From: an uncultured Acidimicrobiaceae bacterium
GTDB taxonomy: Bacteria > Actinomycetota > Acidimicrobiia > Acidimicrobiales > Bog-793
NCBI GenBank assembly: GCA_963785415.1
Contig: CAWAVB010000001.1
Location: 483,579-547,578, forward strand
DNA: 64,000 nucleotides
Reading direction: 5' to 3'
The notes beneath the pieces were generated by a model that had not been told where the DNA came from, made no database searches, and saw only the letters and a program-made list of their open reading frames with translations. Positions within the stretch are counted from its first letter, which is position 1. Every line of letters starts with the position of its first letter. Positions 17,399 through 38,366 of this stretch are shown piece after piece. The position numbers were made by a program, and so were the translations under genes.

Positions 17399-17724
17399 CA
17401 GGACTTGCCTCCGTCCTCGGTCGCCTCGCTCCGCGCCGCCGCCGGTCGGCGTTGGAACATCTTCAGCATGCGGTCGGTGACCGTGTAGCCCCCGACGACG
17501 TTCATGCCCGCGAACACCGCGGCGATGAAGGCGAGCGTGTAGCCCACCGCGTCGTGCGCCGTCGAGGCGATGAGGAACGCCCCGATGATGACGACGCCGT
17601 GAATGGAGTTCGCCGCCGACATCAACGGTGTGTGGAGCGTCTGGGGGACCTTGGAGATCACCTCGAACCCCACGAGAAGACTGAGCACGAAGATCGTGAC
17701 ATCAGTGATCAGACTCGTATCCAT
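17398..17724 (-). CDS. pntAB: NAD(P) transhydrogenase subunit alpha part 2 (membrane)
   Basis: 108 aa with three or four TM helices. LHTPLMSAANSIHGVV motif. One-nt overlap with the pntB start. Confidence 0.88.
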   Translation of the reverse strand: MDTSLITDVTIFVLSLLVGFEVISKVPQTLHTPLMSAANSIHGVVIIGAFLIASTAHDAVGYTLAFIAAVFAGMNVVGGYTVTDRMLKMFQRRPAAARSEATEDGGKS

Positions 17725-17728
17725 CGAC

Positions 17729-18967: not shown

Positions 18968-19086
18968 CACCCTCCTTGGGTGGCCCGAGTCTCCCGGCCA
19001 CCCAACTGGTCGGGCCCGGGCGCACCGCGCGCCCCCGACCCCCGTCTTTCCGATCCAAAGTGGTGCCGCGCCGCAGCTGAATCCCT

Positions 19087-21725: not shown

Positions 21726-21734
21726 CTCGATCCC

Positions 21735-22988
21735 CTAGACGATCCGCGCCGTCGGCGTGCGCAGGTCGCCGAACACGCGTCCGACGCTCGGTGGGGTGCT
21801 CAAGTCGGCCGCCATCCGGGCGAGCTCCCGGTCGACGGCATCCCGGTCGAGATCGAGGAAGCTCACCGCGCCGAGCTCGCCGCGGATCGCCTCCCCGAGG
21901 ACCCGACGTAGCGACCCTTCGGTGATCGCCCGTCCGCCCAGGCCAGCGACGACCGTGAAGGTTCTCGTCCCTCGATTGGTGACCAACGCGTCAACGTCGG
22001 CACCGAGGATGCCCCGGCTGCCGGCGGCGAGCGCCTTTTCGATGACGACGACCCGGTGGGCGCCTTCGAGCGCCTCGGCGAGCGCCGCCTCCGGGAACGG
22101 CCGGAACGTCGTGAGGTGGACCACGCCGATCTTCGTCCCCTCCTCGCGCATCTGGTCGACGACGTCCTTGGTCGTTCCCACGATGGAGCCCAGCGCGACG
22201 ACGATCGTCTCGGCGTCCTCGCAGCGGTAGGACGAGACGAGGCCCCCGCTCTGACGGCCGACGACACGGCCGAATTCGTCCGCGAGCTCCGGGATCCGGG
22301 CGAGCGCGCCAAGGTGACGCGCCTGGGTGAGGTAACGGGCTTCGGCGTAGGCCTCCGGTCCGACCACTCCCCCGATCGAGACCGGGTCCGCCGGGTCGAG
22401 GATCAGCCGTGGCTCGAACGGCGGCAGAAAGCGGTCGACCTGTTCCTGGGTCGGAATCTCGACCCGTTCCACGGCGTGGGTGAGGGTGAAACCGTCCATG
22501 CAGACCATCACGGGCAGGCTGAGTTCCTCGGCGAGGCGGAAGGCCTGGATGTGAAGGTCGACGGCGTGCTGGTTCGTCTCGGCGAACAGCTGGATCCAGC
22601 CGGCGTCCCGCAAGGCCATCGCGTCGGAGTGGTCGTTCCAGGAGTTGACCGGCGCCCCCACGGCCCGGTTGGCGACGGTCATCACGATCGGCAGCCCGAG
22701 CCCGGCGGCGTTGAAGACCGCTTCCGTCATGTAAAGCAGTCCCTGGCTCGACGTCGCGGTGTAGGTCCGAGCCCCGGTGGCCGAGGCGCCGATCAGCACG
22801 GAGATCGCCGCGAATTCGGACTCGACGTTGATGAATTCGCACGGCTTGAGCCGCCCGGATTTCACCAGCGTCCCGGCGCCTTCGATGATGTGGGTCTGCG
22901 GCGAGATCGGGTAGGCGCAAACGACCCGAGGGCGACACAAGGCAACCGCTTCCGCGACGGCGCGTGAGCCCTCAATCTGGCGAAGCAC
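21735..22988 (-). CDS. 2-oxoacid:ferredoxin oxidoreductase alpha subunit
   Basis: 417 aa with EGSRAVAEAV..., YPISPQTH, TATSSQGLLYM. Confidence 0.9.
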   Translation of the reverse strand: MLRQIEGSRAVAEAVALCRPRVVCAYPISPQTHIIEGAGTLVKSGRLKPCEFINVESEFAAISVLIGASATGARTYTATSSQGLLYMTEAVFNAAGLGLPIVMTVANRAVGAPVNSWNDHSDAMALRDAGWIQLFAETNQHAVDLHIQAFRLAEELSLPVMVCMDGFTLTHAVERVEIPTQEQVDRFLPPFEPRLILDPADPVSIGGVVGPEAYAEARYLTQARHLGALARIPELADEFGRVVGRQSGGLVSSYRCEDAETIVVALGSIVGTTKDVVDQMREEGTKIGVVHLTTFRPFPEAALAEALEGAHRVVVIEKALAAGSRGILGADVDALVTNRGTRTFTVVAGLGGRAITEGSLRRVLGEAIRGELGAVSFLDLDRDAVDRELARMAADLSTPPSVGRVFGDLRTPTARIV

Positions 22989-23592
22989 CGACGGTCCTCC
23001 TTTGACTTATTTGGTGCGCCACAAGTGCTTCCGGGCCGGCGCGCGTCTGGTTGAACGCCTCGGTCACCGCGGCGACGTTCCCGTCGCGCATCGCCCCCGA
23101 GAAGCGCTCCTCGATGGCGGCGATGACGGCCGCAAGTGAAACGACACCGGTCAACGCGGCAAGACCGCCGAGCATCACCGCGTTCGGTAACGGCCGACCG
23201 AGGTGTGCGATCGCGATCTCAGTTGCCCGGAGCGACAGGACGTGGTTGGCGGGCAGATCCTTGGCGATCCCCGCGACGCCGAGCTCTTCCAGGGTCTTCG
23301 CGGTATTGACGACCACGTAGCCTTGGGGTTTCAGACCCGAGAACAACCCCAGCCCGTGCAGCAGCGTCGCATCCTGGATTACGAGCGCGTCTGGTTCGTC
23401 GATCGGCGCGCGCGTCCTGATCTCGCGTTCACTGATCCGGCAGAACGACGCAACCGGCGCACCGCTGCGTTCTGCGCCGAAGCTCGGGAAGGCCTGGGCG
23501 TGACGGCCGTCGTTGAACGCCGCGACGGCCAACAGTTCCGCCGCGGTCACCACCCCCTGCCCACCGCGTCCATGGAACCGAACCTGGAACAT
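22972..23592 (-). CDS. 2-oxoacid:ferredoxin oxidoreductase gamma subunit
   Basis: 206 aa starting MFQVRFHGRGGQGVVTAAELLA, with SFGAERSGAP. Confidence 0.88.
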   Translation of the reverse strand: MFQVRFHGRGGQGVVTAAELLAVAAFNDGRHAQAFPSFGAERSGAPVASFCRISEREIRTRAPIDEPDALVIQDATLLHGLGLFSGLKPQGYVVVNTAKTLEELGVAGIAKDLPANHVLSLRATEIAIAHLGRPLPNAVMLGGLAALTGVVSLAAVIAAIEERFSGAMRDGNVAAVTEAFNQTRAGPEALVAHQISQRRTVGASPD

Positions 23593-23800: not shown

Positions 23801-24952
23801 GTGCCTTCCCCTGATGGTGTCGTCATCGATCCAGACGGGGTCGACTCGCTCATCGCATCGCTTCGGGCCCAGGGCTACCGCGTCGTGGGACCCGTCGTGT
23901 CCAACGGTGCCATCGTCCATCGCGAGATCCAGTCCGTCGAGGATCTCCCGAAGGGCTGGCATGACGAACAGCGACCCGGTTCGTACCGCATCAGTCACGG
24001 CGACGACCAGGAGCTGTTCGGATGGGCGGTCGGTCCCGAATCGTTCAAGCAGTCGGTCTTCCCCTCCCGGGCGGTGCTGTGGCGCGCCCGACGCGACGGA
24101 GGTGAGGTCGCGGTCGAGGCGGAGGTCGACGACGCCCCGCGCGAGGCGTTCTTCGGGGCCCGCCCGTGCGAGGTCGCGGCGCTCGACGTCCTCGGCGGCG
24201 TGCTCGCCGGGGCGGCCCGTCCCGATCCCGTCTTCACCCGCCGGCGCGACGCGGCCTTCGTCGTCACCGTGGAGTGTGGCACTCCCGCGGCGACCTGCTT
24301 CTGCACCTCGATGGGCTCCGGCCCCGCGGCTGGGGGGAACTTCGACCTCGCGCTCACGGAGCTCGCCGGGCCCGATCACCGCTTCCTCGTACACGTGGGA
24401 TCGGAGCGGGGCGGCGCCGTGCTCGCCGGGATCGCCTCGCGGCCCGCGACCGCCGACGACGCGAAGGCCCGCGACGCGGTCGTCGGCCGCGCTGAGTCCG
24501 CCATCAGCCGGACGCTCGACGCCGCCGCAGCCCCGGGGCTGCTCGCGCGCAACCTCGAGCACCCGCGCTGGGACGACGTCGCCAGCCGCTGTCTCGCCTG
24601 CGGGAACTGCACGCTCGTGTGCCCGACCTGCTTCTGCGCTGCCGTCGAGGAGAAGACCGACCTCTCCGGCACCGCTGAGCAGATCCGCCGCTGGGACTCG
24701 TGCTTCGACCTCGCCCACTCCTATCTACACGGCGGTTCGGTCCGCGTCTCGACGCGATCCCGCTACCGCCAGTGGATGACCCACAAGCTCTCGACTTGGG
24801 TCGACCAGTTCGGGAACTCGGGTTGCATCGGTTGCGGGCGCTGCATCACGTGGTGTCCGGTGGGCATTGACATCACCGAGGAGCTCGCCGCGATCGCGGC
24901 GAGCGACGGCGCGGTGAAAAAGGACGAACCCGCTGCGGTTCGGGACAGGTAG
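23801..24952 (+). CDS. hyhB: group-3b hydrogenase / sulfhydrogenase beta-type Fe-S subunit (AsrA-like)
   Basis: 383 aa with Cys clusters CGTPAATCFCTS, CLACGNCTLVCPTCFC and CIGCGRCITWCP. First gene of the hydrogenase operon. Confidence 0.8.
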   Translation: MPSPDGVVIDPDGVDSLIASLRAQGYRVVGPVVSNGAIVHREIQSVEDLPKGWHDEQRPGSYRISHGDDQELFGWAVGPESFKQSVFPSRAVLWRARRDGGEVAVEAEVDDAPREAFFGARPCEVAALDVLGGVLAGAARPDPVFTRRRDAAFVVTVECGTPAATCFCTSMGSGPAAGGNFDLALTELAGPDHRFLVHVGSERGGAVLAGIASRPATADDAKARDAVVGRAESAISRTLDAAAAPGLLARNLEHPRWDDVASRCLACGNCTLVCPTCFCAAVEEKTDLSGTAEQIRRWDSCFDLAHSYLHGGSVRVSTRSRYRQWMTHKLSTWVDQFGNSGCIGCGRCITWCPVGIDITEELAAIAASDGAVKKDEPAAVRDR

Positions 24953-24954
24953 GC

Positions 24955-25425
24955 GTGATGGAAGAGATGAGCGATCTCATCGCCAAGAATTCGTTGTTCG
25001 CCGGTCTCCCCGACTCGACGATCGAGCTCGCCGTCGGGTGCGCGCAGAACGTCGCGTTCGAGCCCGGAGCCCGCATCCTGGTCGAAGGCGAGCCGGCCGA
25101 CACCTTGTACCTCCTGCGGCGCGGACGGGTCGCCCTTCAGGTGCAGCGTCCGTCCGGCAAGCCCCTCGTCATCGAGACGATCGGCCCGAACAGCGTGCTC
25201 GGCTGGTCCTGGCTCGTTCCGCCGTACCGCTGGCAATTCGACGGCGTGGCGATCGACCCGGTCGGCGCCGTCGCCATCGACGGCACGTGCTTGCGCGCCA
25301 AGGCCGACGCCGACTCGGTGTTCGGCTACGCGCTCCTGCAGCGCATCAGCGGCGTCCTGCTCAGCCGCCTGCAATCGACACGCGTCCGTCTCCTCGACCT
25401 CTACGGGCACAGCCTTGATGACTGA
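24955..25425 (+). CDS. stand-alone cyclic-nucleotide-binding (cNMP/CAP effector) domain protein, no DNA-binding domain
   Basis: 156 aa. LFAGLPDSTIELAVGCAQNVAFEPGARILVEGEPADTLYLLRRGRVALQV...GPNSVLGWSWL follows the beta-barrel pattern of cNMP-binding domains. Starts 3 nt after the hyhB stop and overlaps the hyhG start. Confidence 0.75.
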   Translation: MMEEMSDLIAKNSLFAGLPDSTIELAVGCAQNVAFEPGARILVEGEPADTLYLLRRGRVALQVQRPSGKPLVIETIGPNSVLGWSWLVPPYRWQFDGVAIDPVGAVAIDGTCLRAKADADSVFGYALLQRISGVLLSRLQSTRVRLLDLYGHSLDD

Positions 25426-26263
25426 AGCCACACTGACGAAGCCCGGGCCGTTCGTGCCCTCCCGATACCGCGTCGTGGACCGCAAAGTGGAGACGTTCGA
25501 CATCACGACGCTGTGGCTCGAACCGGTCGATCAGCCGATCGACGCCTTCAAGGCGGGGCAGTTCAACATGCTCACGGCGTTCGGGGTCGGCGAGATCGCC
25601 ATCTCCATCAGCTCGGCGCCGGGCGCGCCGGGCGCGATCGAGCACACCGTCCGTGACGTGGGCGCCGTGAGCCACGCGCTCTCGCAGTCCGCGGTGGGTG
25701 ACATCGTCGGTGTGCGCGGACCGTTCGGCACCGACTGGGGTCTCGACACCCTCGACGGTGTCAACGTCGTCGTCGTCGCCGGCGGCATCGGACTCGCGCC
25801 GCTGCGCGGCGCCATGCGCTACCTCGCCGAGAACAAGTCGCCGAAGCGCGCCGTCGCCCTGCGCGTCGGGGCCCGGCTCCCGGACCAGATCGTCTTCCCC
25901 GACGAGATCGCCCGCTGGGGCGAGATGGGCCTCGACGTCGCGGTGACGGTCGATGTCGCCGACGCCGGGTGGACCGGCCAGGTCGGCGTCGTCACCCAGA
26001 TCCTCGCCGAGCTCCCCTTCGACGGTGCAGGCGCGATCGCACTCGTCTGCGGACCAGAGATCATGATGCGCTTCAGCGCGCGGTCCCTCGTCGACCTCGG
26101 CGTCGCACCGGAGAACATCCGGGTGTCGCTCGAGCGCAACATGCAGTGCGGCATCGCGATGTGCGGGCACTGCCAACTCGGGCCGTACCTGCTGTGCCGG
26201 GACGGGCCGGTCGTCCCCTATGCGCCGCTTGCGGCGGAGCTGATCACGGAGAGCGAACGATGA
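25415..26263 (+). CDS. hyhG: group-3b hydrogenase gamma-type subunit (FAD/NAD(P)-binding, PyrK-like, C-terminal 2Fe-2S)
   Basis: 282 aa with FNR-like fold motifs (AGQFNML, VVVAGGIGLAPL) and C-terminal CGIAMCGHCQLGPYLLC. Confidence 0.85.
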   Translation: MMTEATLTKPGPFVPSRYRVVDRKVETFDITTLWLEPVDQPIDAFKAGQFNMLTAFGVGEIAISISSAPGAPGAIEHTVRDVGAVSHALSQSAVGDIVGVRGPFGTDWGLDTLDGVNVVVVAGGIGLAPLRGAMRYLAENKSPKRAVALRVGARLPDQIVFPDEIARWGEMGLDVAVTVDVADAGWTGQVGVVTQILAELPFDGAGAIALVCGPEIMMRFSARSLVDLGVAPENIRVSLERNMQCGIAMCGHCQLGPYLLCRDGPVVPYAPLAAELITESER

Positions 26264-27033
26264 CGAGTCGACCGACGCTTGCGGTGTGGAAGTTCGCCTC
26301 GTGCGACGGCTGCCAGCTCGGCATCCTCGACTGCGAGGACGAGCTCCTCCAACTCGCGCAGGCCGTGCAGATCGCCAGCTTCACCGAGATGACGAGCGCA
26401 GTGATCGAGGGCCCCTACGACGTCTCGCTCGTCGAGGGATCGATCACGACCCCCGACGATGCCGACCGGATCCTCGCGGTGCGCGCCGCCTCGGGACTTC
26501 TCGTCACGATCGGGGCGTGCGCGACGGCCGGCGGGATCCAGGCGCTCCGCAACTACGCCAACGTCGGCGAGTACACCTCGACCGTCTACGCGCATCCGGA
26601 GTACATCTCGACCCTCGCCGAGAGCAGCCCGATCTCGTCATACGTCCAGGTCGACGTCGAACTGCGCGGCTGCCCGATCAACCGCCTCCAGCTCGTCGAG
26701 GTCGTCACCGCGCTGCTCGCCGGCCGCCGCCCGGTCATCCCCGGCTACAGCGTCTGCGAGGAGTGCAAGACGGCCGGCAATCTCTGCGTCCTCGTCGCCC
26801 ACGGGACACCGTGCCTCGGCCCGGTGACCCGCGCCGGGTGCGGCGCCCTCTGCCCGGCGGTGAACCGCGGCTGCTACGGCTGCTTCGGCCCGGCGAACAC
26901 GACGAACACCGGGTCGCTGTCGAAGCGGCTCGCCGATCTCGGCCTGTCCGACCGGGGGGTGTCGCGGATGTTCCGGACCTTCAACTCCGCCGCGACCGAG
27001 TTCTCAAAGGAGAGTCTCGAGCATGACGCCTAG
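26260..27033 (+). CDS. hyhS: NiFe hydrogenase small (delta-type) subunit
   Basis: ORF 25969..27033 trimmed to ATG 26260 (ATGA overlap with the hyhG stop). FASCDGCQL, GACATAGGIQ, and C-terminal Cys-rich CEECK...CLGPVTRAGCGALCP...CYGCFG. Confidence 0.9.
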   Translation: MTSRPTLAVWKFASCDGCQLGILDCEDELLQLAQAVQIASFTEMTSAVIEGPYDVSLVEGSITTPDDADRILAVRAASGLLVTIGACATAGGIQALRNYANVGEYTSTVYAHPEYISTLAESSPISSYVQVDVELRGCPINRLQLVEVVTALLAGRRPVIPGYSVCEECKTAGNLCVLVAHGTPCLGPVTRAGCGALCPAVNRGCYGCFGPANTTNTGSLSKRLADLGLSDRGVSRMFRTFNSAATEFSKESLEHDA

Positions 27034-28330
27034 CGGACCCAACGCGAACCGCACGATCGACGTCCACGGCCTTGCCCGGGTCGAAGGCGAAGGGTCGCTC
27101 CACGTCGCGATCCACGACGGGGCCCTCGAACGCGTCGAGCTCGAGATCTTCGAGCCGCCGCGCTTTTTCGAGGCCTTCCTCGTCGGCCGGGGCTACGAGG
27201 AGCCGCCGGACATTACGGCGCGCATCTGCGGGATCTGCCCTGTCGCCTACCAGATGTCCGCCTGCGCGGCAATCGAGGACGCCTGCGGCGTCACGGTCCC
27301 CGAGTCGATCGGCAAGCTCCGGCGCCTTTTGTACTGCGGTGAGTGGATCCAGAGCCACGCCCTCCACATCTACCTGCTCCACGCCCCGGACTTCTTCGGC
27401 TGCCGCGACGCCGTCGAGCTCGCCGCGCTGAACCCGGCCGCCGTCGAGCGCGGCCTGCGCCTAAAAAAGACCGGCAACCACCTCATGGAACTGGTCGGTG
27501 GACGGGCGATCCACCCCGTCAACGTCCGCATCGGGGGTTTCTACCGCTCCCCCGAACGCGCCGAGATCGCCGCGATGATCGAGCCGCTCCGACGCGCCCG
27601 GGAGGAGTCGCTCGAGACGATCGCCTGGGTCGCCGGCTTCGAGTTCCCCGAGATCGAGGCGGATTACCGCTTCGTGGCGCTTTCACACCCCGACCACTAC
27701 GCGATCGAGGCGGGCCGGGTCGTGTCCTCCGACGGGATCGACGCCACCCCCGGCGAGTTCACCGACGTGGCCGTCGAGGAGCACGTCGCCCGCTCGTCGG
27801 CGCTGCACTCCCGGCTGCGCGGTCGCGACCCATACCTCACTGGCCCGCTCGCCCGCTACGCGCTCAACGGGTCGAAGCTGCCCAAAGCGGCGCGTGACGC
27901 GGCCGCCGAGGCGGGTCTCGGTCCGGTGTGCGCGAACCCGTTCAAGAGCATCATCGTGCGGGCCGTCGAGCTCTACTTCGCCTGCGACGAGGCGCTGCGG
28001 CTCGCGACCGAGTACGAACCGCCCGAGCCCGCGGCCGTCCCGGTCCCGCCCCGGGCCCGCGTCGGAGCCGGGGCGACCGAGGCCCCCCGCGGCATGCTCC
28101 TGCAGCGTTACGAGCTCGACGCCGAGGGGACGATCCAATCGGCGCGCATCATGCCCCCGACGTCGCAGAACCAGCTGACGATCGAGTCCGACGTCCGCCA
28201 GGTCGTCGCCTCCGGCCTCGAGCTCGGCGACACCGAGCTCACGGCCCGCTGTGAGCTCGCCGTGCGCAACCACGATCCGTGCATCTCGTGCGCCGCCCAC
28301 TTCCTCGACGTGTCGATCGACCGCTCATGA
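27023..28330 (+). CDS. hyhL: NiFe hydrogenase large (alpha) subunit, group 3b-like
   Basis: 435 aa. N-terminal RICGICPVAYQ and C-terminal DPCISCAAH Ni-Fe ligand cysteine pairs. Overlaps the hyhS end by 11 nt. Confidence 0.95.
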   Translation: MTPSGPNANRTIDVHGLARVEGEGSLHVAIHDGALERVELEIFEPPRFFEAFLVGRGYEEPPDITARICGICPVAYQMSACAAIEDACGVTVPESIGKLRRLLYCGEWIQSHALHIYLLHAPDFFGCRDAVELAALNPAAVERGLRLKKTGNHLMELVGGRAIHPVNVRIGGFYRSPERAEIAAMIEPLRRAREESLETIAWVAGFEFPEIEADYRFVALSHPDHYAIEAGRVVSSDGIDATPGEFTDVAVEEHVARSSALHSRLRGRDPYLTGPLARYALNGSKLPKAARDAAAEAGLGPVCANPFKSIIVRAVELYFACDEALRLATEYEPPEPAAVPVPPRARVGAGATEAPRGMLLQRYELDAEGTIQSARIMPPTSQNQLTIESDVRQVVASGLELGDTELTARCELAVRNHDPCISCAAHFLDVSIDRS

Positions 28331-28773
28331 CCACGCGTGTCGTCGTCGCCGGGATCGGCAACGCCTTCCGCCGCGACGACGGTGCCGGGCCCGCCGTCGC
28401 CCAGGTCGTTGCCGCCTCCACCGGAGCGGTCGACATCGGCCCGATCGGCGAGCCCCTCGACCTCCTCGGCCGGTGGGAGACGGCGGACCTCGCCGTCCTC
28501 GTCGACGCGACCCGCTCCGACGCCGTGGCCGGAACGGTCCGGCTCGTTGAACTCGGCGACGCCGTCGACCGGCCGAGCCAGAGCACGCACGCCATCGGCC
28601 TCGACCGCGTCGTCCGGCTCGCCCAGGTGCTGCGGAGCGCCCCGGCCCGAGTCGTCGTCGTCGGCATCGAAGGGGAGGACTTCTCCGACGGGGAAGGCCT
28701 CTCCCCCGCCGTCTCCGACGCCGTGCCCGCGGCGGCACGCCGCATCGCCGAGCTCATCGCCGAGGCGTCATGA
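28327..28773 (+). CDS. hydrogenase maturation endopeptidase (HycI/HoxW family)
   Basis: ORF 28279..28773 trimmed to ATG 28327 (ATGA overlap with the hyhL stop). VVVAGIGNAFRRDDGAG matches the GxGNxxxxDDGxG signature. Confidence 0.85.
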   Translation: MTTRVVVAGIGNAFRRDDGAGPAVAQVVAASTGAVDIGPIGEPLDLLGRWETADLAVLVDATRSDAVAGTVRLVELGDAVDRPSQSTHAIGLDRVVRLAQVLRSAPARVVVVGIEGEDFSDGEGLSPAVSDAVPAAARRIAELIAEAS

Positions 28774-28786
28774 CCGGGGGCCGCCG

Positions 28787-29038
28787 ATGTGCATGAGCCG
28801 GCTCCACCGGGTCGTCTCGGTCACCGACGCCCGCGCGGTGCTCGCCGCAGACATCGACGGGAGCGAGCACGCGCTGTCGCTGCTCGCTTACGACGGCTGT
28901 GCGCCGCAACCGGGCGACTGGGTCGTGGCGCACAGCGGCTACGCGCTCGGCCCCGCCGACCGGGCCGAGGCGGAGGCGGTGCTCGCCGAGTACCGCGCCG
29001 CCAGCGCGGCGATTGACGAGAAAAGCAGTCCGAACTAG
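28787..29038 (+). CDS. hypC: HypC/HupF-family hydrogenase assembly chaperone
   Basis: 83 aa starting MC (MCMSRLHRVVSV...), with GDWVVAHSGYALGPADRAEAEAVL resembling the GDxVLVHxGxA core. It is the last third of the alternative-frame ORF 28337..29038. Confidence 0.72.
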   Translation: MCMSRLHRVVSVTDARAVLAADIDGSEHALSLLAYDGCAPQPGDWVVAHSGYALGPADRAEAEAVLAEYRAASAAIDEKSSPN

Positions 29039-29046
29039 GAGACGAA

Positions 29047-30009
29047 GTGGCCAACTCGAACACGACAACAGGCAAGACCCGCCTTCCCGGACTGTACGTC
29101 GCCGGCGCCACGGCGATCATCAGCGGCATCTCGGTCTTCACGAACAGCTACGGCGTAAAGAGCTTCGCCTCCCCCGCCGTCTACACGACGGCGAAGAACC
29201 TCGCGGCGACGCTCGTCATCGCCGCGTTCGTCGTCGTCGCCTGGCGGGCGACCCGTCGGCCGGCCGCGGCGTCGATCCCCGTGGTCCCGTCCGGGTCGGG
29301 CCCGCGCCCGCTCGCCGGTGCCGCCCGGCTCGCCGGCTTCGCCTACGTCGCCGCGATCGGCGGCGGCGCGGCGTTCATCTTCTTTTTCGACGGGCTCGCC
29401 CGCACCTCGGCGGTGCCGGCGGTCTTCCTCCACGACACGCTCGTCATCTGGGTCGCCCTCGCCGCGCTCCCGCTCCTCGGCGAGCGCGTCGGGCGCTGGA
29501 ATCTCGCGGCGATCGCCCTGCTCGTCGTCGGTGTCACGCTGACCTCGGGCGGCGTCGGCCACCTCGCACTCAACTCGGGCAACGCCCTCGTGCTCGGCGC
29601 GACGGTGCTCTGGGCGATCGAGACGGTCATCGCCAAGCGGCTGCTCCGCGGCGTCGGGCCGTCGACGCTCGCCCTCGTGCGGATGGGCGGCGGCGCCGTC
29701 GTGCTCGTCGGCTACCTCGCGGCGACGGGCCAGTTCCACGCGCTCGTCGGGCTCGATGCCGCCGAACTGCGCTGGGCGCTCGTCACCGGCTGCCTGCTCG
29801 GCGGCTACGTGGCGACCTGGATGACCGCGCTCAGCCGGGCCCGCGCCGTCGACGTCACCTCGGTCCTCGTCGCCTCCGCGGCGGTCACGCTCTTCCTCGA
29901 CGCCGCCATCCACCACTCCGGACTCGCCTCCGACACCGTCGGGCTCGTGCTGCTCGCCCTCGGCGTCGCCGCCGTCGTGCGGGCCTGGCCCCGAGTCGCC
30001 CGCGCGTGA
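29047..30009 (+). CDS. EamA/DMT-superfamily transporter (10 predicted TM segments)
   Basis: 320 aa. Two internally similar five-helix halves, hydrophobic throughout. Starts 8 nt after the hypC stop. Confidence 0.78.
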   Translation: MANSNTTTGKTRLPGLYVAGATAIISGISVFTNSYGVKSFASPAVYTTAKNLAATLVIAAFVVVAWRATRRPAAASIPVVPSGSGPRPLAGAARLAGFAYVAAIGGGAAFIFFFDGLARTSAVPAVFLHDTLVIWVALAALPLLGERVGRWNLAAIALLVVGVTLTSGGVGHLALNSGNALVLGATVLWAIETVIAKRLLRGVGPSTLALVRMGGGAVVLVGYLAATGQFHALVGLDAAELRWALVTGCLLGGYVATWMTALSRARAVDVTSVLVASAAVTLFLDAAIHHSGLASDTVGLVLLALGVAAVVRAWPRVARA

Positions 30010-30779
30010 CCCTGGGGCCGATCCTTTTCGCCCGGTACGCCTACCCACCGAACGCCCTCGGCTATTGCGGGCCGGCGGACCACGCGGCGCTGCTCGGCGC
30101 GGCGAGCGAGGGGGATGACCTGCGGGAGCTCACGTACCTCGCCTCGCGCTTCGAGGGTGCCTGGCCCTACCTCGAGCTCATCGCGGGGTGCAACGGCGTC
30201 GCCGACCCGCTCGACGAACGCGTCGTCGAGGCCTACTGGGTCGGCAACCGTCTGCTCGACCGCGTCCCTGCCGGCGCGCTCGTCGCCTCGCTCGACGAAC
30301 GGTTCGCCCGCCGCACCGGTCGGGACTTCGAGCCGATCGCCGCGGCCGTCCCCCTCGGCGGCGTGGCGCACCACAGCTTCCACGTCTTCGCGGTCTATCC
30401 CTGGCTCGGCCTGCTGCGGTCCGGAACGGAGGGTCCGGCGCTCGCCGTCCTCGACCGGTGCCGCATCCGGTGGGGCCGTGTTGTCACGGTGGAAGGCGAC
30501 ACCGTCGTCGTGCGGAACCGGACGCTCGAATTCCGCGACGACCGGCTCGTGCTTGGCGCGGCGCGGACCGAGCGGGTCCGCCGCGCCGTCGACGGCGTCG
30601 GCATCCTCGGGGACCTGCGCGCCGGGGAGGTCGTCTCCCTCCACTGGGACTGGGTCTGCGAGCGGTTGTCGCCGGGTCGCCTCGCCGCGCTGCGGCGGGC
30701 GAACGCGCGCAACCTTGCGGTCGTGAACGCCCTCCCCGCGCCCGGCCCCGTCGTCGCGGCCAACTCCTGGGGCGGCTAG
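30006..30779 (+). CDS. uncharacterised conserved-looking protein (257 aa) at the end of the hydrogenase operon
   Basis: The last 257 codons of ORF 28899..30779, from GTG 30006 (GTGA overlap with the transporter stop). Non-biased composition. N-terminal FARYAYPPNALGYCGPADH. The C-terminal segment GRVVTVEGDTVVV...LRAGEVVSLHWDWVCERL is reminiscent of HypC-type OB folds. Confidence 0.65.
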   Translation: MTLGPILFARYAYPPNALGYCGPADHAALLGAASEGDDLRELTYLASRFEGAWPYLELIAGCNGVADPLDERVVEAYWVGNRLLDRVPAGALVASLDERFARRTGRDFEPIAAAVPLGGVAHHSFHVFAVYPWLGLLRSGTEGPALAVLDRCRIRWGRVVTVEGDTVVVRNRTLEFRDDRLVLGAARTERVRRAVDGVGILGDLRAGEVVSLHWDWVCERLSPGRLAALRRANARNLAVVNALPAPGPVVAANSWGG

Positions 30780-33094: not shown

Positions 33095-33637
33095 CTAGCC
33101 CGCGGCGCGCTCGAAAAGTGGCGCCACGTACGGCTGCCAGTCGGCGCGCAGCTCGCCGGACGCGGCGAGCAGCCAGACGCGCGACCTGGGCGCGTGCGGG
33201 GCGCGGCGGAGCGTGAACCCCGCCTCTTCGAGGAGCCGGTCCTCTTTGAGGGAATTGCAGCGTCGGCACGCCGCGACGACGTTCTCCCAGATGTGCGCCC
33301 CGCCGCGGCTGCGCGGCGTGACGTGGTCGATGTTCTCGGCCTGGCCGCCGCAGTACTGGCAACGGTGCCCGTCGCGAGCGAACACGCTGCGACGGGTGAT
33401 GGCGATGCGCGCCGTGTACGGCACCCGGACATAGTGCGCCAGGCGCACGACCGACGGCTCGGGGAACGAGACCCGCGCGGAGCGGTAGAGCCGGCCCGTT
33501 TCGTGGATGAGCTCGGCCTTCTCCTCGATCACCAGAACGAGCGCCCGGCGCGAAGACACGACGCAGATCGGCTCGTACGTCGCGTTGAGAACGAGGGACC
33601 TCCCGTCCACGTCAGGCCCGATCGTCCCCGAAAACAT
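33095..33637 (-). CDS. HNH endonuclease family protein
   Basis: 180 aa with DGHRCQYCGGQAENIDHVTPRSRGGAHIWENVVAACRRCN (HNH/Zn-finger core). Confidence 0.85.
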   Translation of the reverse strand: MFSGTIGPDVDGRSLVLNATYEPICVVSSRRALVLVIEEKAELIHETGRLYRSARVSFPEPSVVRLAHYVRVPYTARIAITRRSVFARDGHRCQYCGGQAENIDHVTPRSRGGAHIWENVVAACRRCNSLKEDRLLEEAGFTLRRAPHAPRSRVWLLAASGELRADWQPYVAPLFERAAG

Positions 33638-33661
33638 TGCGCGCCGGCATCTGCGGCGAGG

Positions 33662-33970
33662 CTAGCGCGCCACCCGTCTGCGTGAGCGCCTTGTCCCTTG
33701 CAGCACGCGCATCTGGCGGGCCCATTCGAGATAATCGGCGAGATCCTCCGCCGAGGGGACCGCGGTCGCGGTTCCGTAGGCGACCTCCATGCGGAACGCG
33801 ATCCAGGCCGGGTCCGGCAGCGGGAGGAACGGGCGGTGGCGCCACCAGCGCCGCCGAACGAGGCTCAGCCCGAGCCGCGCCGCGGCGGGAACGAGTCGCG
33901 GCCGACGGACGACGACCGCGGCCATGGAACGGAACTGTGCCGCAAGGGCCGCCCGATCGGCCCGGTCCAC
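33662..33970 (-). CDS. hypothetical protein
   Basis: 102-aa ORF with non-shadow-like composition in its second half (PDPAWIAFRMEVAYGTATAVPSAEDLADYLEWARQMRVL). No motif recognised. Confidence 0.45.
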   Translation of the reverse strand: MDRADRAALAAQFRSMAAVVVRRPRLVPAAARLGLSLVRRRWWRHRPFLPLPDPAWIAFRMEVAYGTATAVPSAEDLADYLEWARQMRVLQGTRRSRRRVAR

Positions 33971-33975
33971 AGCGC

Positions 33976-34347
33976 TCAGCGCTCGCGACCGAATCGTGAC
34001 CGCAGGCGCCGACCGATCATCGACAGCTCCTCAGAAAGCACACGCGGCCTCGCTTGGCGGCCCGACGCGTCGGGGCGCCCGAAGACCTGATGGGCGCTGC
34101 GCTCGAAGAGCAGCGCCGCCATGAGCATGACGAGGAACCCGAAGGTCCCGATCAGCGTGGACGAGCGGAACGAGACGAGGAGCACGGCGAACCCGATGAG
34201 GAAGATCACCGCCGACCACCACATCGAACGGCCGGCGAGCGAGCGGGAGGGCTTCGTCCGGACGCGGCTCGCGAAGCCGCGGTCGTGCTCGAACAGCTTC
34301 TGTTCCATCTCGTGGAGAATGCGCTGCTCGTCTTCCGAAAGCGGCAC
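33976..34347 (-). CDS. DUF3040-like membrane protein
   Basis: ORF 33976..34731 trimmed to GTG 34347, preceded by GGGGGAGAAG. N-terminal PLSEDEQRILHEMEQKLFEHDRGFA followed by two TM segments. Confidence 0.68.
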   Translation of the reverse strand: MPLSEDEQRILHEMEQKLFEHDRGFASRVRTKPSRSLAGRSMWWSAVIFLIGFAVLLVSFRSSTLIGTFGFLVMLMAALLFERSAHQVFGRPDASGRQARPRVLSEELSMIGRRLRSRFGRER

Positions 34348-34492
34348 CTTCTCCCCCTTCTCTCCGCGGCGGCCAGCTGGCGCTGACCGGACCACGGCGG
34401 CTTCGTCCGTCTGCCACGCTAATCCCCCGGCAACTCCCCGCCGCGCGCGACCCGCTCCCGAGTCTGCCCGCGGTGAACCGCTCGATCGCTCC

Positions 34493-35812
34493 CTAGTGCC
34501 GTTTCCGGCCAGGTCGGCCGCCGCGCCGCGCCGTCCGGCGCCCGGCCGCCGCCGCCGAGGTGATGGCGTCTGGCCCGAAGCGGCGCCGGATCTCGTCCGC
34601 CGCCACCTCGACCTCGTCGCCCCGGCCGGCGGGCGTCGGGAGGTCCCGGCCGGCGGCGGCGTCGGCGAACAGGCCGAGCTGCACGGCGTGCTCGAGGTTC
34701 GACTCGCCGAGGTTCGACACCGACACGCCAAGGAGGCGCACCCCGCGGCCGGCGTCGACCGCCTCGAGCAACGCCGTCGCCACCTCGGCGATCTCGGCGG
34801 CCGAGGTCACCGGGCGGTCGAGCGATCGGGAACGGTCGATCGTCTCGAAATCGCCGAACCGCACCTTCACCGACACCGTCCTCGCCGCGACGCCCCGGGC
34901 CCGACAGCGCGCCGCGACCGAGACGGCGAGTTCGCGGGCCTTGCTGGCGAGCGACGCCGGGTCGTGGTCGTCGACGTCGAACGTCTGCTCGTGGCCGATC
35001 GAGCGCAGGACGCGGTCGGTCACCACGCGCCGGTCGTCCCGCCCGGCCGCGAGGTCGAACAGCGCCGCGCCGTGCGCCTCCCCGAACATCGCGACCAGTC
35101 GCTGGCGCCCGACAAGAGCGAGGTCCCCGACCGTCGTCACGCCGATGCGGCGCAGGCGTTCCGCCGTGGCGGGCCCGATCCCGGGAACGGCCCGGACGGG
35201 GTGGGCGTGGAGGAAGGAGAGCTCGTCGGCGGGGACGACGAGGACGACGCCGGCGCCCGGGTCGAATCCACCGGGCCGGACGCGGGGTTTCGCCGCTTTC
35301 GAGGCGAGCTTGGCGACGAGCTTGGTCCGGCCGATCCCGATCGCGCAGGCGAGCGCGAGCTCGTCGAGCACGCGTCGCCGCAGGTCCGTCGCGATCGTCC
35401 AGCTGTCACCGAACAGCTGGTGCGCCCCGGACACGTCGAGGAATGCCTCGTCGATCGAGATCGGCTCGACGATCGGCGTGACCTCGTGGCAGAGCCCGAC
35501 GAGGCGGGCGCTCACCTTCTCGTAGTCCTCGTGGTGCCCGGCGACGACGACGAGACCCGGGCAGCGCCGGCGCGCCTCGGCGATCGGCATCGCCGAGCGC
35601 ACGCCGAAGACCCGCGCCTCGTAGGACGCCGAGGACACGACCGAGCGGGGCCCGGAGCCCCCGACGACGACCGGACGGCCGACGAGCGACGGGTCGGCGC
35701 GGACTTCGACCGCGGCGAAGAACGAGTCCATGTCGAGGTGCAGCACGTCGGTCGCGTCGACTCCCGCACCGAGCCGCACCGACGCGGCGCCGGGTCGAGG
35801 GACTTCTGGCAC
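34493..35812 (-). CDS. dinB: DNA polymerase IV (Y-family)
   Basis: 439 aa with LHLDMDSFFAAVE, SIDEAFLDV, GIGRTKLVAKLAS, VPGIGPATAERL. Confidence 0.93.
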   Translation of the reverse strand: MPEVPRPGAASVRLGAGVDATDVLHLDMDSFFAAVEVRADPSLVGRPVVVGGSGPRSVVSSASYEARVFGVRSAMPIAEARRRCPGLVVVAGHHEDYEKVSARLVGLCHEVTPIVEPISIDEAFLDVSGAHQLFGDSWTIATDLRRRVLDELALACAIGIGRTKLVAKLASKAAKPRVRPGGFDPGAGVVLVVPADELSFLHAHPVRAVPGIGPATAERLRRIGVTTVGDLALVGRQRLVAMFGEAHGAALFDLAAGRDDRRVVTDRVLRSIGHEQTFDVDDHDPASLASKARELAVSVAARCRARGVAARTVSVKVRFGDFETIDRSRSLDRPVTSAAEIAEVATALLEAVDAGRGVRLLGVSVSNLGESNLEHAVQLGLFADAAAGRDLPTPAGRGDEVEVAADEIRRRFGPDAITSAAAAGRRTARRGGRPGRKRH

Positions 35813-35826
35813 GGGCGGGCTCTCGG

Positions 35827-36540
35827 TCAGGGCCCGAGCCAGACCCGGCGGAACGCTTCCGCGTACTCGACGCCGGCGACGCGGCCCGCCTCGGCGGCGC
35901 GCTCCTCCATCACCGGCCGGAACGACTCCCCGGCCTCCCCGAGCTGGCTGACGTGGCAGCAGACGGCGTCCGCCTTGCGGCCGACGGTCGCCGTCACGTC
36001 GACGTAGACGTTGGGCTCGAGCGAGCCCGACAGCAACGCGAACCCGACGGCGTGCGGGGGCCCAGCGTCGGGGAAGTACAGCGGCGACGCCGCGCCCGGC
36101 GCCGCGCCGTCGAGGGCGGCGAACCCGACGACCCGGTGGTCGCGGTGGTTGTAGTAGTGCTCGCCGAAGAACACGGCGAGCGGATCGGGACAGACCAGCA
36201 CCTCCGGGCGCAGCTCGCGCAACAACACGACGAGCTCACGACGGAGATCGGGATCGTTCTCGAACTCCCCGTCGGGACGTCCCAGCCGGTGCACGCCGGA
36301 CACCCCGAGGACGCCCGCCGCGGCCTCGATCTCGGCGACACGGGTCGCGACGAGCTCGGCGGGATCCTGCGCCGCATCCCTCGTGCCCTTGTCGCCGGCG
36401 GCGCACACCACGAGATCGACCACCGTCCCCGCGTCCGCCCATCGCGCGAGCGTCCCCCCGCACGAGACGTCGGAGTCGTCCGGATGGGCGTAGATGGCAA
36501 CGGCCCGGCGCGGTGCGTCGCTCAGCAGTTCGACGGACAC
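35827..36540 (-). CDS. PIG-L/LmbE family deacetylase
   Basis: 237 aa with AIYAHPDDSDVSCGGTLA and HRDHRVVG motifs. Confidence 0.85.
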   Translation of the reverse strand: MSVELLSDAPRRAVAIYAHPDDSDVSCGGTLARWADAGTVVDLVVCAAGDKGTRDAAQDPAELVATRVAEIEAAAGVLGVSGVHRLGRPDGEFENDPDLRRELVVLLRELRPEVLVCPDPLAVFFGEHYYNHRDHRVVGFAALDGAAPGAASPLYFPDAGPPHAVGFALLSGSLEPNVYVDVTATVGRKADAVCCHVSQLGEAGESFRPVMEERAAEAGRVAGVEYAEAFRRVWLGP

Positions 36541-36546
36541 GGCGCG

Positions 36547-37065
36547 TCAGCCCGGGGTCCGGGTCGCGCGCCGTGCAGCCGGCACGCCCTCGGGCGGGTG
36601 GTGCTGCTTCGGCGCCGTCGCCTTCGTCAAGAGCCCCGCTTCGCGCGCGAAGTCGCCGAGGCTCTCGAAACCCTTGTACACGCTGGCAAAGCGGATGTAG
36701 GCAACGTCGTCGAGGTCGCGCAAGCGGTCGAGCACCGCGACTCCGATCTGCTCGGTTGTCACGTCCCGACCCGAATGGGCGAGCTCGTTCTCGACGGCGA
36801 CGGCGAGCGCCTCGATCGCGTCCTCGTCGACCGGCCGGTTCTTGCAGGCCGCCCGGACCCCGGCCACGACCTTCTCACGACGGAACGGCTCCCGTTCGGC
36901 GGACCTTTTCACGACGAAGGTGACCGGACCACCGAGGCGCTCGAAGGTCGTGAAGCGGTAACCGCAGTTTCGGCACTCGCGGCGCCGACGGATTGACTCG
37001 CCGCGGTCGACCTCGCGCGAGTCGATGACGTGGTCATCGCCGGCCGAGCACCTCGGACAACGCAC
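36547..37065 (-). CDS. nrdR: transcriptional repressor NrdR
   Basis: ORF 36547..37596 trimmed to GTG 37065. VRCPRCSAGDDHVIDSR...CRNCGYRFTTFE zinc ribbon plus an ATP-cone. Confidence 0.93.
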   Translation of the reverse strand: MRCPRCSAGDDHVIDSREVDRGESIRRRRECRNCGYRFTTFERLGGPVTFVVKRSAEREPFRREKVVAGVRAACKNRPVDEDAIEALAVAVENELAHSGRDVTTEQIGVAVLDRLRDLDDVAYIRFASVYKGFESLGDFAREAGLLTKATAPKQHHPPEGVPAARRATRTPG

Positions 37066-37120
37066 CGCGGGAGAGTAGCGCTCCCAGGGCTTCGGCCCCG
37101 GTGCGTCGGGACACCGCCCG

Positions 37121-37531
37121 TCAGGACGAGGGGACGGTGAGAACAGTCCCGGGCCGGAGCGCGGCCCCATGGAGCTCGGCGGCGAGGGTCGCGACGACCT
37201 CGACCGGGTCGCCCGCCGGGTCGAGCCGCGTGGCAATCGCCCACAGGGTGTCGCCGGGACGGGCGACGTAGACGATCTCACGACCTCCGGCGCCGGCCGG
37301 GGCGTTCTGCGTCGCCCGTAGCGCCCCCGCGCCGAACCAGAGCCCGGCGAAGGCCACGAGCGCGGCCAGGGCGCCACCCACCTGGCGCCCGATCGCGGCG
37401 CGGGGCCGCGGGTCGATGAGACAACACGTCGCCCGGCCGCCGTCGCCTCCGACGAGCCCGAAGGACGCCTGCCCGGGATGCGGGACAAGACGGACCCTCG
37501 ACTCCCGGAGCGAACCGACCACCGCCGCCAT
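37121..37531 (-). CDS. LysM-domain protein (ChiZ/Rv2719c-like position between nrdR and lexA)
   Basis: ORF 37121..37648 trimmed to ATG 37531, preceded by GGAGG. One TM segment, then a C-terminal LysM (YVARPGDTLWAIATRL...LRPGTVLTVP). Confidence 0.75.
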   Translation of the reverse strand: MAAVVGSLRESRVRLVPHPGQASFGLVGGDGGRATCCLIDPRPRAAIGRQVGGALAALVAFAGLWFGAGALRATQNAPAGAGGREIVYVARPGDTLWAIATRLDPAGDPVEVVATLAAELHGAALRPGTVLTVPSS

Positions 37532-37603
37532 ATCTGCCTCCGAAGAAACGGAACCCGCCGGGCGTCCGTACGTACGTTCGGCTGCCCGGGGACCATCGTC
37601 GCA

Positions 37604-37661
37604 CGAACGTCTGTTCGGTGTCAACGACCGGGCGAACGGGTGTTCCACGAACGGATGTTTG
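37604..37661. promoter_or_regulatory. three tandem LexA (SOS) boxes of the actinobacterial CGAAC-N4-GTTCG type
   Basis: aCGAACgtctGTTCGg (approximately 37604-37617), CGAACgggtGTTCc (approximately 37633-37646), and CGAACggatGTTTg (approximately 37648-37661, one mismatch), in the divergent lexA / LysM-gene intergenic region. Confidence 0.7.
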
Positions 37662-37733
37662 CATCTGGGTGTGACACGGAGGTAACTTCGAGGTCAGGAC
37701 GTGGCCGCGGGCCGTTCGCGAAAGGCGGGGCAG

Positions 37734-38366
37734 ATGGCCGAAATCCAACTCTCGGGCAAGCGTCGTCAGATTCTCGAGTTCATCGAACGCGAGGTCCGCG
37801 AACGCGGCTACCCGCCGTCGGTGCGCGAGATCGGCGAGGCGGTGGGGCTCACCTCCTCCTCGACCGTCCACGCCCACCTGCAGATCCTCCAGCGCCAGGG
37901 CTACCTGCGCCGCGACCCGACGAAACCGCGCGCGATCGAGGTCTCCTTCGAGCCCTCGTCGGGCGCCGCGATCGGCGTGCGACCCGTCGCCCACGTGCCC
38001 CTCGTCGGTGACGTCGCCGCCGGCGTCGGCGTGCTCGCCCAGGAGAACGTCGAGGAGGTCCTGCCGGTGCCGGAGGACCTCACCGGACCGGGTGAGTTGT
38101 TCATGCTGCGGGTGCGCGGCGACTCGATGATCGGGGCGGGCATCCTCAACGACGACCTCGTCGTCGTGCGTCACCAGCCTGAAGCCGAGCCCGGCGACGT
38201 CGTCGTCGCCGGCATCCCGGACGGCGAGGCGACGGTGAAGACCTTCCGCCGCCGGCACGGTCACGTCGTGCTCGTGCCCGCGAACCCCGACTTCGCCGAG
38301 ATCGAGCTGCCGCCCGAGGAGGTCACGATCTACGGCAAGGTCGTGACCGTCCTGCGCCGCCTGTAG
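37734..38366 (+). CDS. lexA: LexA repressor
   Basis: ORF 37701..38366. ATG 37734 gives MAEIQLSGKRRQILEFIE... (wHTH), the VAAG cleavage region, and S24 peptidase motifs VRGDSMIGAGI and ATVKTF. GTG 37701 is an alternative start. Confidence 0.95.
   Translation: MAEIQLSGKRRQILEFIEREVRERGYPPSVREIGEAVGLTSSSTVHAHLQILQRQGYLRRDPTKPRAIEVSFEPSSGAAIGVRPVAHVPLVGDVAAGVGVLAQENVEEVLPVPEDLTGPGELFMLRVRGDSMIGAGILNDDLVVVRHQPEAEPGDVVVAGIPDGEATVKTFRRRHGHVVLVPANPDFAEIELPPEEVTIYGKVVTVLRRL

Follow-up and report, generated by a model that had tools for sequence, protein, structure and literature searches.

A conserved pair of EamA permease and DUF6390 genes travels with [NiFe]-hydrogenase genes, as seen from an operon of an uncultured Acidimicrobiaceae bacterium

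A 64-kb stretch of DNA of about 72% G+C from an uncultured Acidimicrobiaceae bacterium, hereafter called the window, carries a [NiFe]-hydrogenase operon of nine genes on the plus strand (23801-30779). The last two of them, which encode an EamA-type permease of the drug/metabolite transporter (DMT) kind and a protein of the family DUF6390, are the subject of this study. Neighboring genes are spaced by -11 to +13 nt, and tight coupling is a feature of the entire nine-gene operon, not just of its last genes. The genes, with product lengths in amino acids (aa), and the two predicted domains of the DUF6390 protein are as follows.

23801..24952, plus strand: HyhB-like Fe-S subunit, 383 aa, gene 1 of the operon (Pfam Fer4_22, 5.4e-31); kept in 67 of 80 related loci
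24955..25425, plus strand: protein with a cyclic-nucleotide-binding domain only, 156 aa (Pfam cNMP_binding, 6.7e-11), with no helix-turn-helix (HTH)
25415..26263, plus strand: HyhG-like NAD(P)/FAD subunit, 282 aa (Pfam NAD_binding_1 and DHODB_Fe-S_bind)
26260..27033, plus strand: [NiFe]-hydrogenase small subunit (HyhS), 257 aa (Pfam Oxidored_q6, 3.1e-21)
27023..28330, plus strand: [NiFe]-hydrogenase large subunit (HyhL), group 3b-like, 435 aa (Pfam NiFeSe_Hases), with the motif DPCISCAAH at the C-terminus
28327..28773, plus strand: hydrogenase maturation endopeptidase, 148 aa (TIGR00072, 7.8e-29; Pfam HycI)
28787..29038, plus strand: HypC, 83 aa, start MCMSRL, stop TAG, containing GDWVVAHSGYA (Pfam HupF_HypC, PF01455, 33.8 bits; cutoff, 28.5)
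29047..30009, plus strand: EamA/DMT permease, 320 aa, start GTG, stop TGA at 30007-30009 (PF00892, two repeats)
30006..30779, plus strand: DUF6390 protein, 257 aa, start GTG (PF19927, 308.1 bits, E 5.5e-92)
30006..30458, plus strand: predicted all-helical N-terminal domain of the DUF6390 protein, residues 1-151, with Cys21 at 30066-30068 and with His123/His126
30459..30728, plus strand: predicted HypC-like OB barrel and C-terminal helix of the DUF6390 protein, residues 152-241, with Cys152 at 30459-30461, His213 at 30642-30644 and then Cys218

The stop codon of HyhG and the start codon of HyhS overlap as ATGA, as do those of HyhL and the endopeptidase, and those of the EamA permease and the DUF6390 protein overlap as GTGA; hypC and the EamA gene are separated by 8 nt, with GGAGA ahead of the GTG start of the latter. 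A preceding reading of the window from its letters alone (the sequence-only reading) had given this 8-nt gap, the GTGA overlap and the last product of 257 aa just as they were read here, and the motifs that it quoted, YAYPPNALGYCGP and GRVVTVEGDTVVV...AGEVVSLHWDWVCERL, are both present in the 257-aa protein. Its naming of the endopeptidase and of hypC agreed with the matches to HycI/TIGR00072 and PF01455, and its naming of the EamA-type transporter with two stretches matched by PF00892 (71.1 bits; cutoff, 28.2), in which a crude hydropathy count indicated about eight strong helices. The enzyme had also been called a group 3b hydrogenase, in good agreement with the presence of the HyhB, HyhG, HyhS and HyhL subunits and with the Pfam and NCBIfam results, which placed the large subunit nearest to the sulfhydrogenases; the best NCBIfam models for HyhL were those of the sulfhydrogenase ShyA (1e-70) and HydA (6e-67), both scored below their equivalog cutoffs, and the subunit is accordingly described as group 3b-like. 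A scan for promoters and terminators between 23300 and 31200, uninformative at a G+C content of about 72%, returned no plus-strand sites.

The 257-aa protein, which the sequence-only reading had regarded as unknown, was revealed to belong to a catalogued Pfam family, DUF6390, with residues 3-243 aligned to positions 4-240 of the 244 of the profile at a score far above the cutoff of 25 bits. No mention of DUF6390 or PF19927 was found in the searched literature, nor was any paper joining hydrogenase, EamA and hypC. The family is a large one, comprising 5,267 proteins at E<=1e-5 in a database clustered at 90% and 1,306 clusters at 50% identity.

The surroundings of DUF6390 genes were compared in a close-relative set of 80 genome loci (56-93% identity, mostly Acidimicrobiales) and in a divergent set (approximately 40-58% identity) of 80 metagenome loci, 24 of which have at least 5 kb of upstream sequence. 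Among the close relatives with at least 5 kb upstream, 68 of 69 loci encode a hydrogenase large subunit, in the order hydrogenase-protease-HypC-(EamA)-DUF6390, and hydrogenase or hyp markers were found in 18 of the 24 divergent loci; the co-occurrence of DUF6390 with hydrogenase loci that had been anticipated from the window was thus observed across genomes. HypC lies upstream of DUF6390 in 73 of 76 genome loci, and EamA lies directly upstream in 71 of the 76 and in 20 of 39 metagenome loci, with four Acidimicrobiales loci having HypC-DUF6390 without EamA. The full group 3b operon is repeated in two loci (L087 and L088). Furthermore, the link recurs in divergent Chloroflexota, Actinomycetota and Sulfobacillus, beside other hydrogenase classes. 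In a locus of Dehalococcoidia (L081), the enzyme is of another class, having a 568-aa large subunit and a small subunit with SSU_C, and the subunit genes are followed by those for HycI, a HypC-like protein of 87 aa, EamA and DUF6390. A Thermomicrobiales locus (L172) encodes a large subunit of 595 aa and ends with HycI-...-HypB(cobW)-HypC-DUF6390, a 405-aa protein and SBP_bac_5, and a further locus (L173) has the order HycI-HypC-DUF6390-EamA. EamA and DUF6390 therefore constitute a conserved accessory pair that travels with [NiFe]-hydrogenase genes across phyla and hydrogenase classes.

The sequence-only reading had remarked that hypA, hypB, hypD, hypE and hypF are absent from the window, and this was confirmed: tblastn of all six frames with HypA/B/D/E/F queries from Sulfobacillus and Mycobacterium gave no match at E<=1e-3, although a small divergent HypA could escape such a search, and Pfam found none among the approximately 39 open reading frames (ORFs). 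Its further suggestion that the pair stands where hypD and hypE would be expected was not supported, because DUF6390 adjoins hypD and hypE as well as hypA and hypB in Mycobacterium and Sulfobacillus, and because hyp genes are commonly missing from group 3b operons and located elsewhere in the genome, as in Frankia synton-4 (PMC11879354). On a plasmid of Sulfobacillus acidophilus, the order is hypF-hypC-hypC'-hypD-hypE-tatA-DUF6390, followed by a hydrogenase with a b-type cytochrome subunit and by hypA-hypB, and on a plasmid of Mycobacterium intracellulare it is hypF-hypC-...-hypE-hypC-hypD-DUF6390, with hypD and DUF6390 overlapping by 4 nt. In several metagenome loci, hypA, hypB, hypE or hypF adjoin DUF6390 (tblastn), and the neighbor is hypA, hypB or hypC in L148, L130 and L172. 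Since DUF6390 coexists with hypABCDEF in these cases, it is to be regarded as an addition to the Hyp machinery, not as a replacement for part of it.

In an alignment of 70 DUF6390 sequences, the most distant of which share about 40% identity with the window protein, Cys21 (LGYCGP), His123 and His126 (HHSFHV), Cys152-Arg153 (CRIxWG) and His213, Trp214, Trp216 and Cys218 (HWxWxC) are invariant, as are many aromatic and charged positions; Cys21, His123, Cys152 and His213 were still invariant in a broader set that included fusion proteins. An AlphaFold2 model built from this alignment, with a predicted local distance difference test score (pLDDT) of 94.5 and a predicted template-modeling score (pTM) of 0.92, consisted of helices (residues 4-152), a beta-barrel (154-220) and a further helix (223-241). 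A Foldseek search of the PDB with the full model gave no whole-protein match, just partial matches to OB folds, and the N-terminal domain modeled alone (pLDDT 84) gave no PDB fold match, the best having an E value of 2.3 and a template-modeling (TM) score below 0.2. Likewise, hhalign comparisons of the N-terminal domain and of the full family with a 236-aa mycobacterial HypC fusion, the 394/405-aa protein described below and a 280-aa mycobacterial neighbor showed no similarity. The helix bearing His123 and His126 is confident in the full-length model but not in that of the N-terminal domain alone, and its dependence on the presence of the OB domain suggests that, in the predicted structure, it packs on this domain. 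DUF6390 is thus modeled as a two-domain protein, in which a helical domain without a solved relative in the PDB precedes an OB barrel of the HypC type.

Several comparisons pointed to HypC as the relative of the C-terminal domain, as the sequence-only reading had suspected from the C-terminal stretch. The partial Foldseek matches of the model in the PDB were ribosomal uS17 and HypC of Thermococcus kodakarensis, the latter (2z1c_B) with a target-normalized TM score of 0.66 over 88 columns, and the modeled strands and closing helix reproduce the HypC arrangement of an OB barrel followed by a C-terminal helix. When the family profile was searched against all PDB sequences, the top three matches, weak as they were (E 0.3-0.6), were all HypC chains, and the alignment paired GDvvslHWdWvCdrl of DUF6390 with GDWVIVHTGFAIEKL of HypC. 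In addition, hhalign of the C-terminal domain profile against the HypC sequences of these loci gave a probability of 92.6% (E 4.5e-7), and with a relaxed alignment threshold the match extended over 81 columns, placing Arg151-Cys152 on Met1-Cys2 of HypC and the invariant His213 on the conserved His of the GDxVxxHxG strand. The Pfam HypC model PF01455, on the other hand, did not match the DUF6390 protein at E<=0.01. The HypC Cys, which together with Cys41 of HypD is a proposed ligand of the Fe(CN)2CO group (PMC8692609), is exposed at position 2, whereas the aligned Cys of DUF6390 is residue 152, behind a domain of 150 residues. Because this Cys is internal, DUF6390 is not a strict member of the HypC family; the earlier suspicion is nonetheless correct at the domain level, since Cys152 and His213 align with Cys2 and the conserved His of HypC. 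Judged from these alignments and the model, the C-terminal domain is a homolog of HypC that has retained the Cys/His dyad.

Compared with the HypC/HybG/HupF chaperones (PF01455), DUF6390 shares the OB barrel followed by a helix, the Cys at the start of strand 1 and the His of the GDxVxxHxG strand, and its gene likewise resides in hydrogenase/hyp clusters, usually directly after hypC. It differs from them in its length of 257 aa with the preceding helical domain, in the additional invariant Cys21, His123 and Cys218, in an inserted hairpin, and in its fusions to HTH and EamA domains, no such fusions being seen among the HypC proteins examined. Two side observations concern HypC itself. In three loci (L081 8785-9048, L082 9706-10008 and L169 18000-18242), HypC lacks the conserved His and has Ala, Asp or Glu instead; these genes adjoin DUF6390 or hydrogenase structural genes, and the His of DUF6390 is kept, which may reflect a division of labor. 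A 236-aa protein on the M. intracellulare plasmid NZ_CP012886 (L170 10076-10786) has an uncharacterized N-terminal region and a HypC domain only at residues 187-235, and is thus a second case of a HypC barrel with an internal start.

The permease showed no match to the known nickel importers NiCoT, NikABCDE, NikMNQO and HupE/UreJ or to their signatures in Pfam and NCBIfam, the latter giving no specific assignment. The invariant residues of its subfamily are T47, T48, K50, N51, E146, E192, R212 and R264, with no His/Cys motif, a pattern that looks more like that of a transporter for an organic or chelated substrate than for a bare cation. In the divergent loci with enough flanking sequence, EamA was adjacent to DUF6390 in 17 and an ATP-binding cassette (ABC) transporter with SBP_bac_5 lay downstream in 8, both occurring together in none and neither in 8, and the two kinds of neighbor are mutually exclusive (Fisher's exact p=0.0009). 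Their mutual exclusion in these loci suggests that EamA and the ABC importer transport in the same direction. The SBP_bac_5 protein of L083 has nikA as its best model and the first permease of this system a nickel permease, while for the SBP_bac_5 protein of L082 GsiB scored marginally above nikA, and the second permease of the system matched an oligopeptide permease best; all of these matches are below the curated cutoffs. Naming the metal from the ABC partners is not possible, as their best matches are mixed (nikA, GsiB, oligopeptide, phosphonate and polyamine) and all sub-cutoff. A protein of 394-405 aa recurs between DUF6390 and SBP_bac_5 (L083 2466-3650; L172 8790-10007; L130 and L147, by tblastn); this and the other recurrent neighbors, namely a 453-aa membrane protein and proteins of 280 and 358 aa, received no assignment from Pfam or NCBIfam.

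DUF6390 also occurs fused to other domains. EamA-DUF6390 proteins, in which DUF6390 extends the permease at its C-terminus, were found (P0229, L104 and L105), as were one-component regulators of the types GntR-, PadR-, XRE- and ArsR-DUF6390 and DUF6390-MarR, the homologs with HTH domains of these five families being P0123, P0169, P0192, P0211, P0161 and P0378; in the window protein, DUF6390 is the sole Pfam domain and no DNA-binding HTH domain was detected. The PadR-DUF6390 gene lies directly upstream of those for the 394-aa protein, SBP_bac_5 and two permeases of the Nik/Opp type, which are followed by a gene resembling that for a hydrogenase small subunit. The GntR-DUF6390 gene lies between hypC/hydrogenase genes and a third kind of importer, an ABC system of the Fbp/PhnS2/Pot type, directly upstream of the latter. 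These HTH fusions, which the sequence-only reading had not anticipated, point to a sensing role by their domain composition. Since the identity between the GntR-fused DUF6390 domain and stand-alone proteins reaches 68%, the two forms probably bind the same ligand. As a side observation, in L106 (396-3692) a stand-alone HypC-DUF6390 pair is followed, on the opposite strand, by a gene that has a PadR domain and, by tblastn, matches DUF6390, and the stand-alone and regulator forms thus appear to coexist in one locus.

Considering these features together, we tentatively favor, at somewhat less than an even chance, the reading that DUF6390 binds a metal in the cytoplasm and is the acceptor, gate or sensor for an importer devoted to hydrogenase cofactor assembly. 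In such a mechanism, Cys21, His123, Cys152, His213 and Cys218 would bind a metal species at the interface of the two domains, and DUF6390, as the acceptor or gatekeeper of the importer, would pass the metal to, or report on, the maturation complex of HypC and the large subunit. The importer would be the EamA permease in the window and an ABC system of the Nik/Opp or Fbp/Pot type, in the same place, in other lineages, and DUF6390 fused to a DNA-binding domain would act as the sensor of a regulator sited beside importers. That DUF6390 binds a metal, which metal this is, in which direction it is transported and how it is handed on are all inferred. Nickel or a nickel chelate would be the first candidate for the metal; iron comes second, because the dyad of HypC is kept and because the origin of the iron in the cofactor is described as unresolved (PMC10847431).

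The sequence-only reading had proposed that the pair could be an undescribed metal- or ligand-supply or maturation module. It is indeed conserved, undescribed and linked to hydrogenases, and a supply role is plausible because the adjoining transporter is replaceable by Nik/Opp-type or Fbp/Pot-type ABC importers. Known systems offer partial parallels. Like the EamA permease, CntI, which transports the nickel/zinc metallophore pseudopaline (PMC5719457), is a DMT permease with two EamA domains and works in metal acquisition, and is a precedent in this respect; in staphylopine systems, its counterpart for import is an ABC transporter with SBP_bac_5. CntI is, however, an exporter, and its operon also holds cntL and cntM for metallophore biosynthesis, whereas genes resembling cntL or cntM were not encountered in the loci annotated here. 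The NikABCDE/NikR and HypA/HypB systems resemble the present one in that maturation genes are joined to an SBP_bac_5 ABC importer, with nikA and the nickel permease as best models in L083, and in that a Cys/His-rich cytoplasmic protein also exists as a DNA-binding fusion upstream of the importer. DUF6390 is nevertheless not homologous to NikR, HypA or HypB, the latter two coexist with it, its ABC partners match the Nik components below the curated cutoffs, and its metal binding is putative.

Several observations weigh against the acceptor/importer reading. Export is a frequent function of DMT proteins. Hydrogenase genes are missing from the vicinity of some DUF6390 genes, namely those of L171 and L080 (Pseudonocardiaceae), of the EamA fusions L104 and L105, and of L163 and L168. 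No His, Cys or Asp is invariant in the membrane helices of the EamA subfamily alignment, which counts against bare Ni2+, and a role of EamA as a channel for the bare ion was judged unlikely on this ground. The ABC partners all fall below curated cutoffs, and the Fbp/Pot-type system matches 2-aminoethylphosphonate and polyamine importers best, so that the substrate could be organic. Moreover, a nickel chaperone would be redundant or auxiliary where HypA and HypB coexist with DUF6390. The more specific proposition, that DUF6390, a HypC domain with a helical cap, represents a new class of hydrogenase metallochaperone or sensor and EamA an unrecognized DMT importer of nickel or iron, probably chelated, dedicated to [NiFe]-cofactor assembly, is put forward as a possibility on the unlikely side.

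Among the other explanations, the one that survives best regards DUF6390 as a specialized HypC paralog, a chaperone or scaffold that would carry or shield the Fe(CN)2CO unit or dock on the large subunit and would have no tie to transport, with EamA as a separate passenger. It would account well for the HypC-type OB fold with its Cys/His dyad, for the usual place of the gene, overlapping with hypC or immediately behind it (hypD in Mycobacterium), and for the four Acidimicrobiales loci lacking EamA. It would also suit the hosts, Actinomycetota, Chloroflexota and Sulfobacillus, which are largely aerobic; such a scaffold would resemble the HupF/HoxL and HupK/HoxV system of aerobic hydrogenase maturation. 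HupK/HoxV is, like DUF6390, an extra lineage-specific accessory that works with a HypC paralog in oxygen-exposed organisms, but DUF6390 presumably has no relation in sequence or fold to HupK/HoxV, which resembles the large subunit, and no link of HupK/HoxV to a transporter or regulator is known. A scaffold would leave unexplained the fusions with EamA and with HTH domains of five families, the mutual exclusion of the EamA and ABC-importer neighbors, and the EamA-DUF6390 loci without hydrogenase; furthermore, the Cys is N-terminal in every HypC and internal in DUF6390. We consider this explanation rather improbable.

Somewhat less probable still is that DUF6390 is purely a sensory or regulatory domain for metal, redox state or O2, holding an Fe-S or metal centre, whose stand-alone form modulates expression or the transporter by contact and takes no part in maturation. 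The independent fusions to GntR, PadR, XRE, MarR and ArsR domains, the position of fused forms directly upstream of importer operons, the PadR-DUF6390 paralog beside the stand-alone pair in L106 and the close similarity of the GntR-fused domain to stand-alone proteins would all be expected of a sensor, and three Cys with one or two His would resemble the pattern of cluster-binding sensors. However, few of the 150 listed representatives exceed a single domain, six of them having an HTH or EamA fusion, the window protein carries no DNA-binding domain, and the fixed, translationally coupled position after the maturation genes fits a stoichiometric partner. A sensing role and the favored role as acceptor of an importer are compatible and do not exclude each other.

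That the two genes are metabolic passengers, a drug or metabolite exporter and an unrelated enzyme that came to lie last in the operon by chance, is strongly disfavored and very improbable: EamA proteins are generic metabolite transporters, NCBIfam made no specific assignment, and some DUF6390 genes lie away from hydrogenases, but the synteny shared between phyla and between hydrogenase classes, with 68 of 69 loci in the close set and 18 of 24 in the divergent one, the overlapping stop and start codons of the pair and the HypC-like domain of DUF6390 speak against it. Finally, the view that the pair replaces absent functions of HypD/HypE (or HypA/HypB) for this hydrogenase, for which the lack of hypA/B/D/E/F in the 64-kb window might speak, is hardly credible, and DUF6390 as a substitute for HypD/E was rejected, because it stands together with hypF, C, D and E and with hypA and B in Sulfobacillus and Mycobacterium and beside hypA, B, E or F in several metagenome loci, because hhalign of its N-terminal domain and of the full family against HypD, HypE, HypA and HypB gave a probability of at most 1.1% for all four, and because group 3b operons are usually served by hyp genes elsewhere in the genome (PMC11879354). 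The readings overlap in part, and in all but that of passengers the pair is taken to be an accessory of [NiFe]-hydrogenases that has gone unstudied.

The remainder of the window contributed some further observations. The gene for the cyclic-nucleotide-binding-domain protein (24955-25425, plus strand), which lies between those for HyhB and HyhG, occupies the same position in 67 of 80 related loci and also in L087, L088, L113 and L141, and the 156-aa product may be an unrecognized regulatory subunit of these group 3b enzymes. Divergent from the hydrogenase operon, the minus-strand region 15971-23592 encodes the PntAB transhydrogenase, a GltD-like oxidoreductase (Fer4_20/Pyr_redox_2) and the gamma, alpha and beta subunits of a 2-oxoacid:ferredoxin oxidoreductase, and the oxidoreductase genes recur in about 20 of 80 related loci; this neighborhood is devoted to NAD(P)H/ferredoxin balancing. 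Downstream of the operon, 33095-38366 encodes an HNH endonuclease, a DinB-type polymerase, a PIG-L deacetylase and LexA, which are ordinary SOS/repair genes unrelated to the hydrogenase pair. A Mur-ligase gene (murC-like; 3937-5363, minus strand) is split into two overlapping ORFs, 4545-5363 for the catalytic and middle domains and 3937-4659 for the C-terminal domain, and the split could be a frameshift or an assembly error. Among the approximately 39 ORFs of the window that were scanned, Pfam recognized ordinary chromosomal genes, namely a division/cell-wall cluster, PntAB, the 2-oxoacid:ferredoxin oxidoreductase, the SOS genes, diaminopimelate genes and FtsH.

Both gene families are already catalogued and the operon type is known; absent from the searched literature are the link between DUF6390 and hydrogenases, the HypC-derived domain, and its coupling with importers of alternative kinds and with regulators. 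In soils, it is by their [NiFe]-hydrogenases that Actinomycetota, Chloroflexota and related groups take up atmospheric H2 and balance their redox state, and knowledge of the maturation of these enzymes comes mostly from Escherichia coli and Ralstonia. A widespread accessory protein without a publication, with about 1,300 clusters at 50% identity, is here tied to hyp genes and to interchangeable importers. Mycobacterium offers a concrete target for genetics, because the ortholog overlaps hypD on the M. intracellulare plasmid. If DUF6390 traffics or senses nickel or iron, the route by which metal reaches the Hyp machinery would become a testable question, as would a DMT permease as an importer of a metal or metal chelate; and if the reading as a metallochaperone with a DMT importer is true, the pair would be a missing component of hydrogenase maturation in Actinomycetota and Chloroflexota, the scavengers of atmospheric H2.

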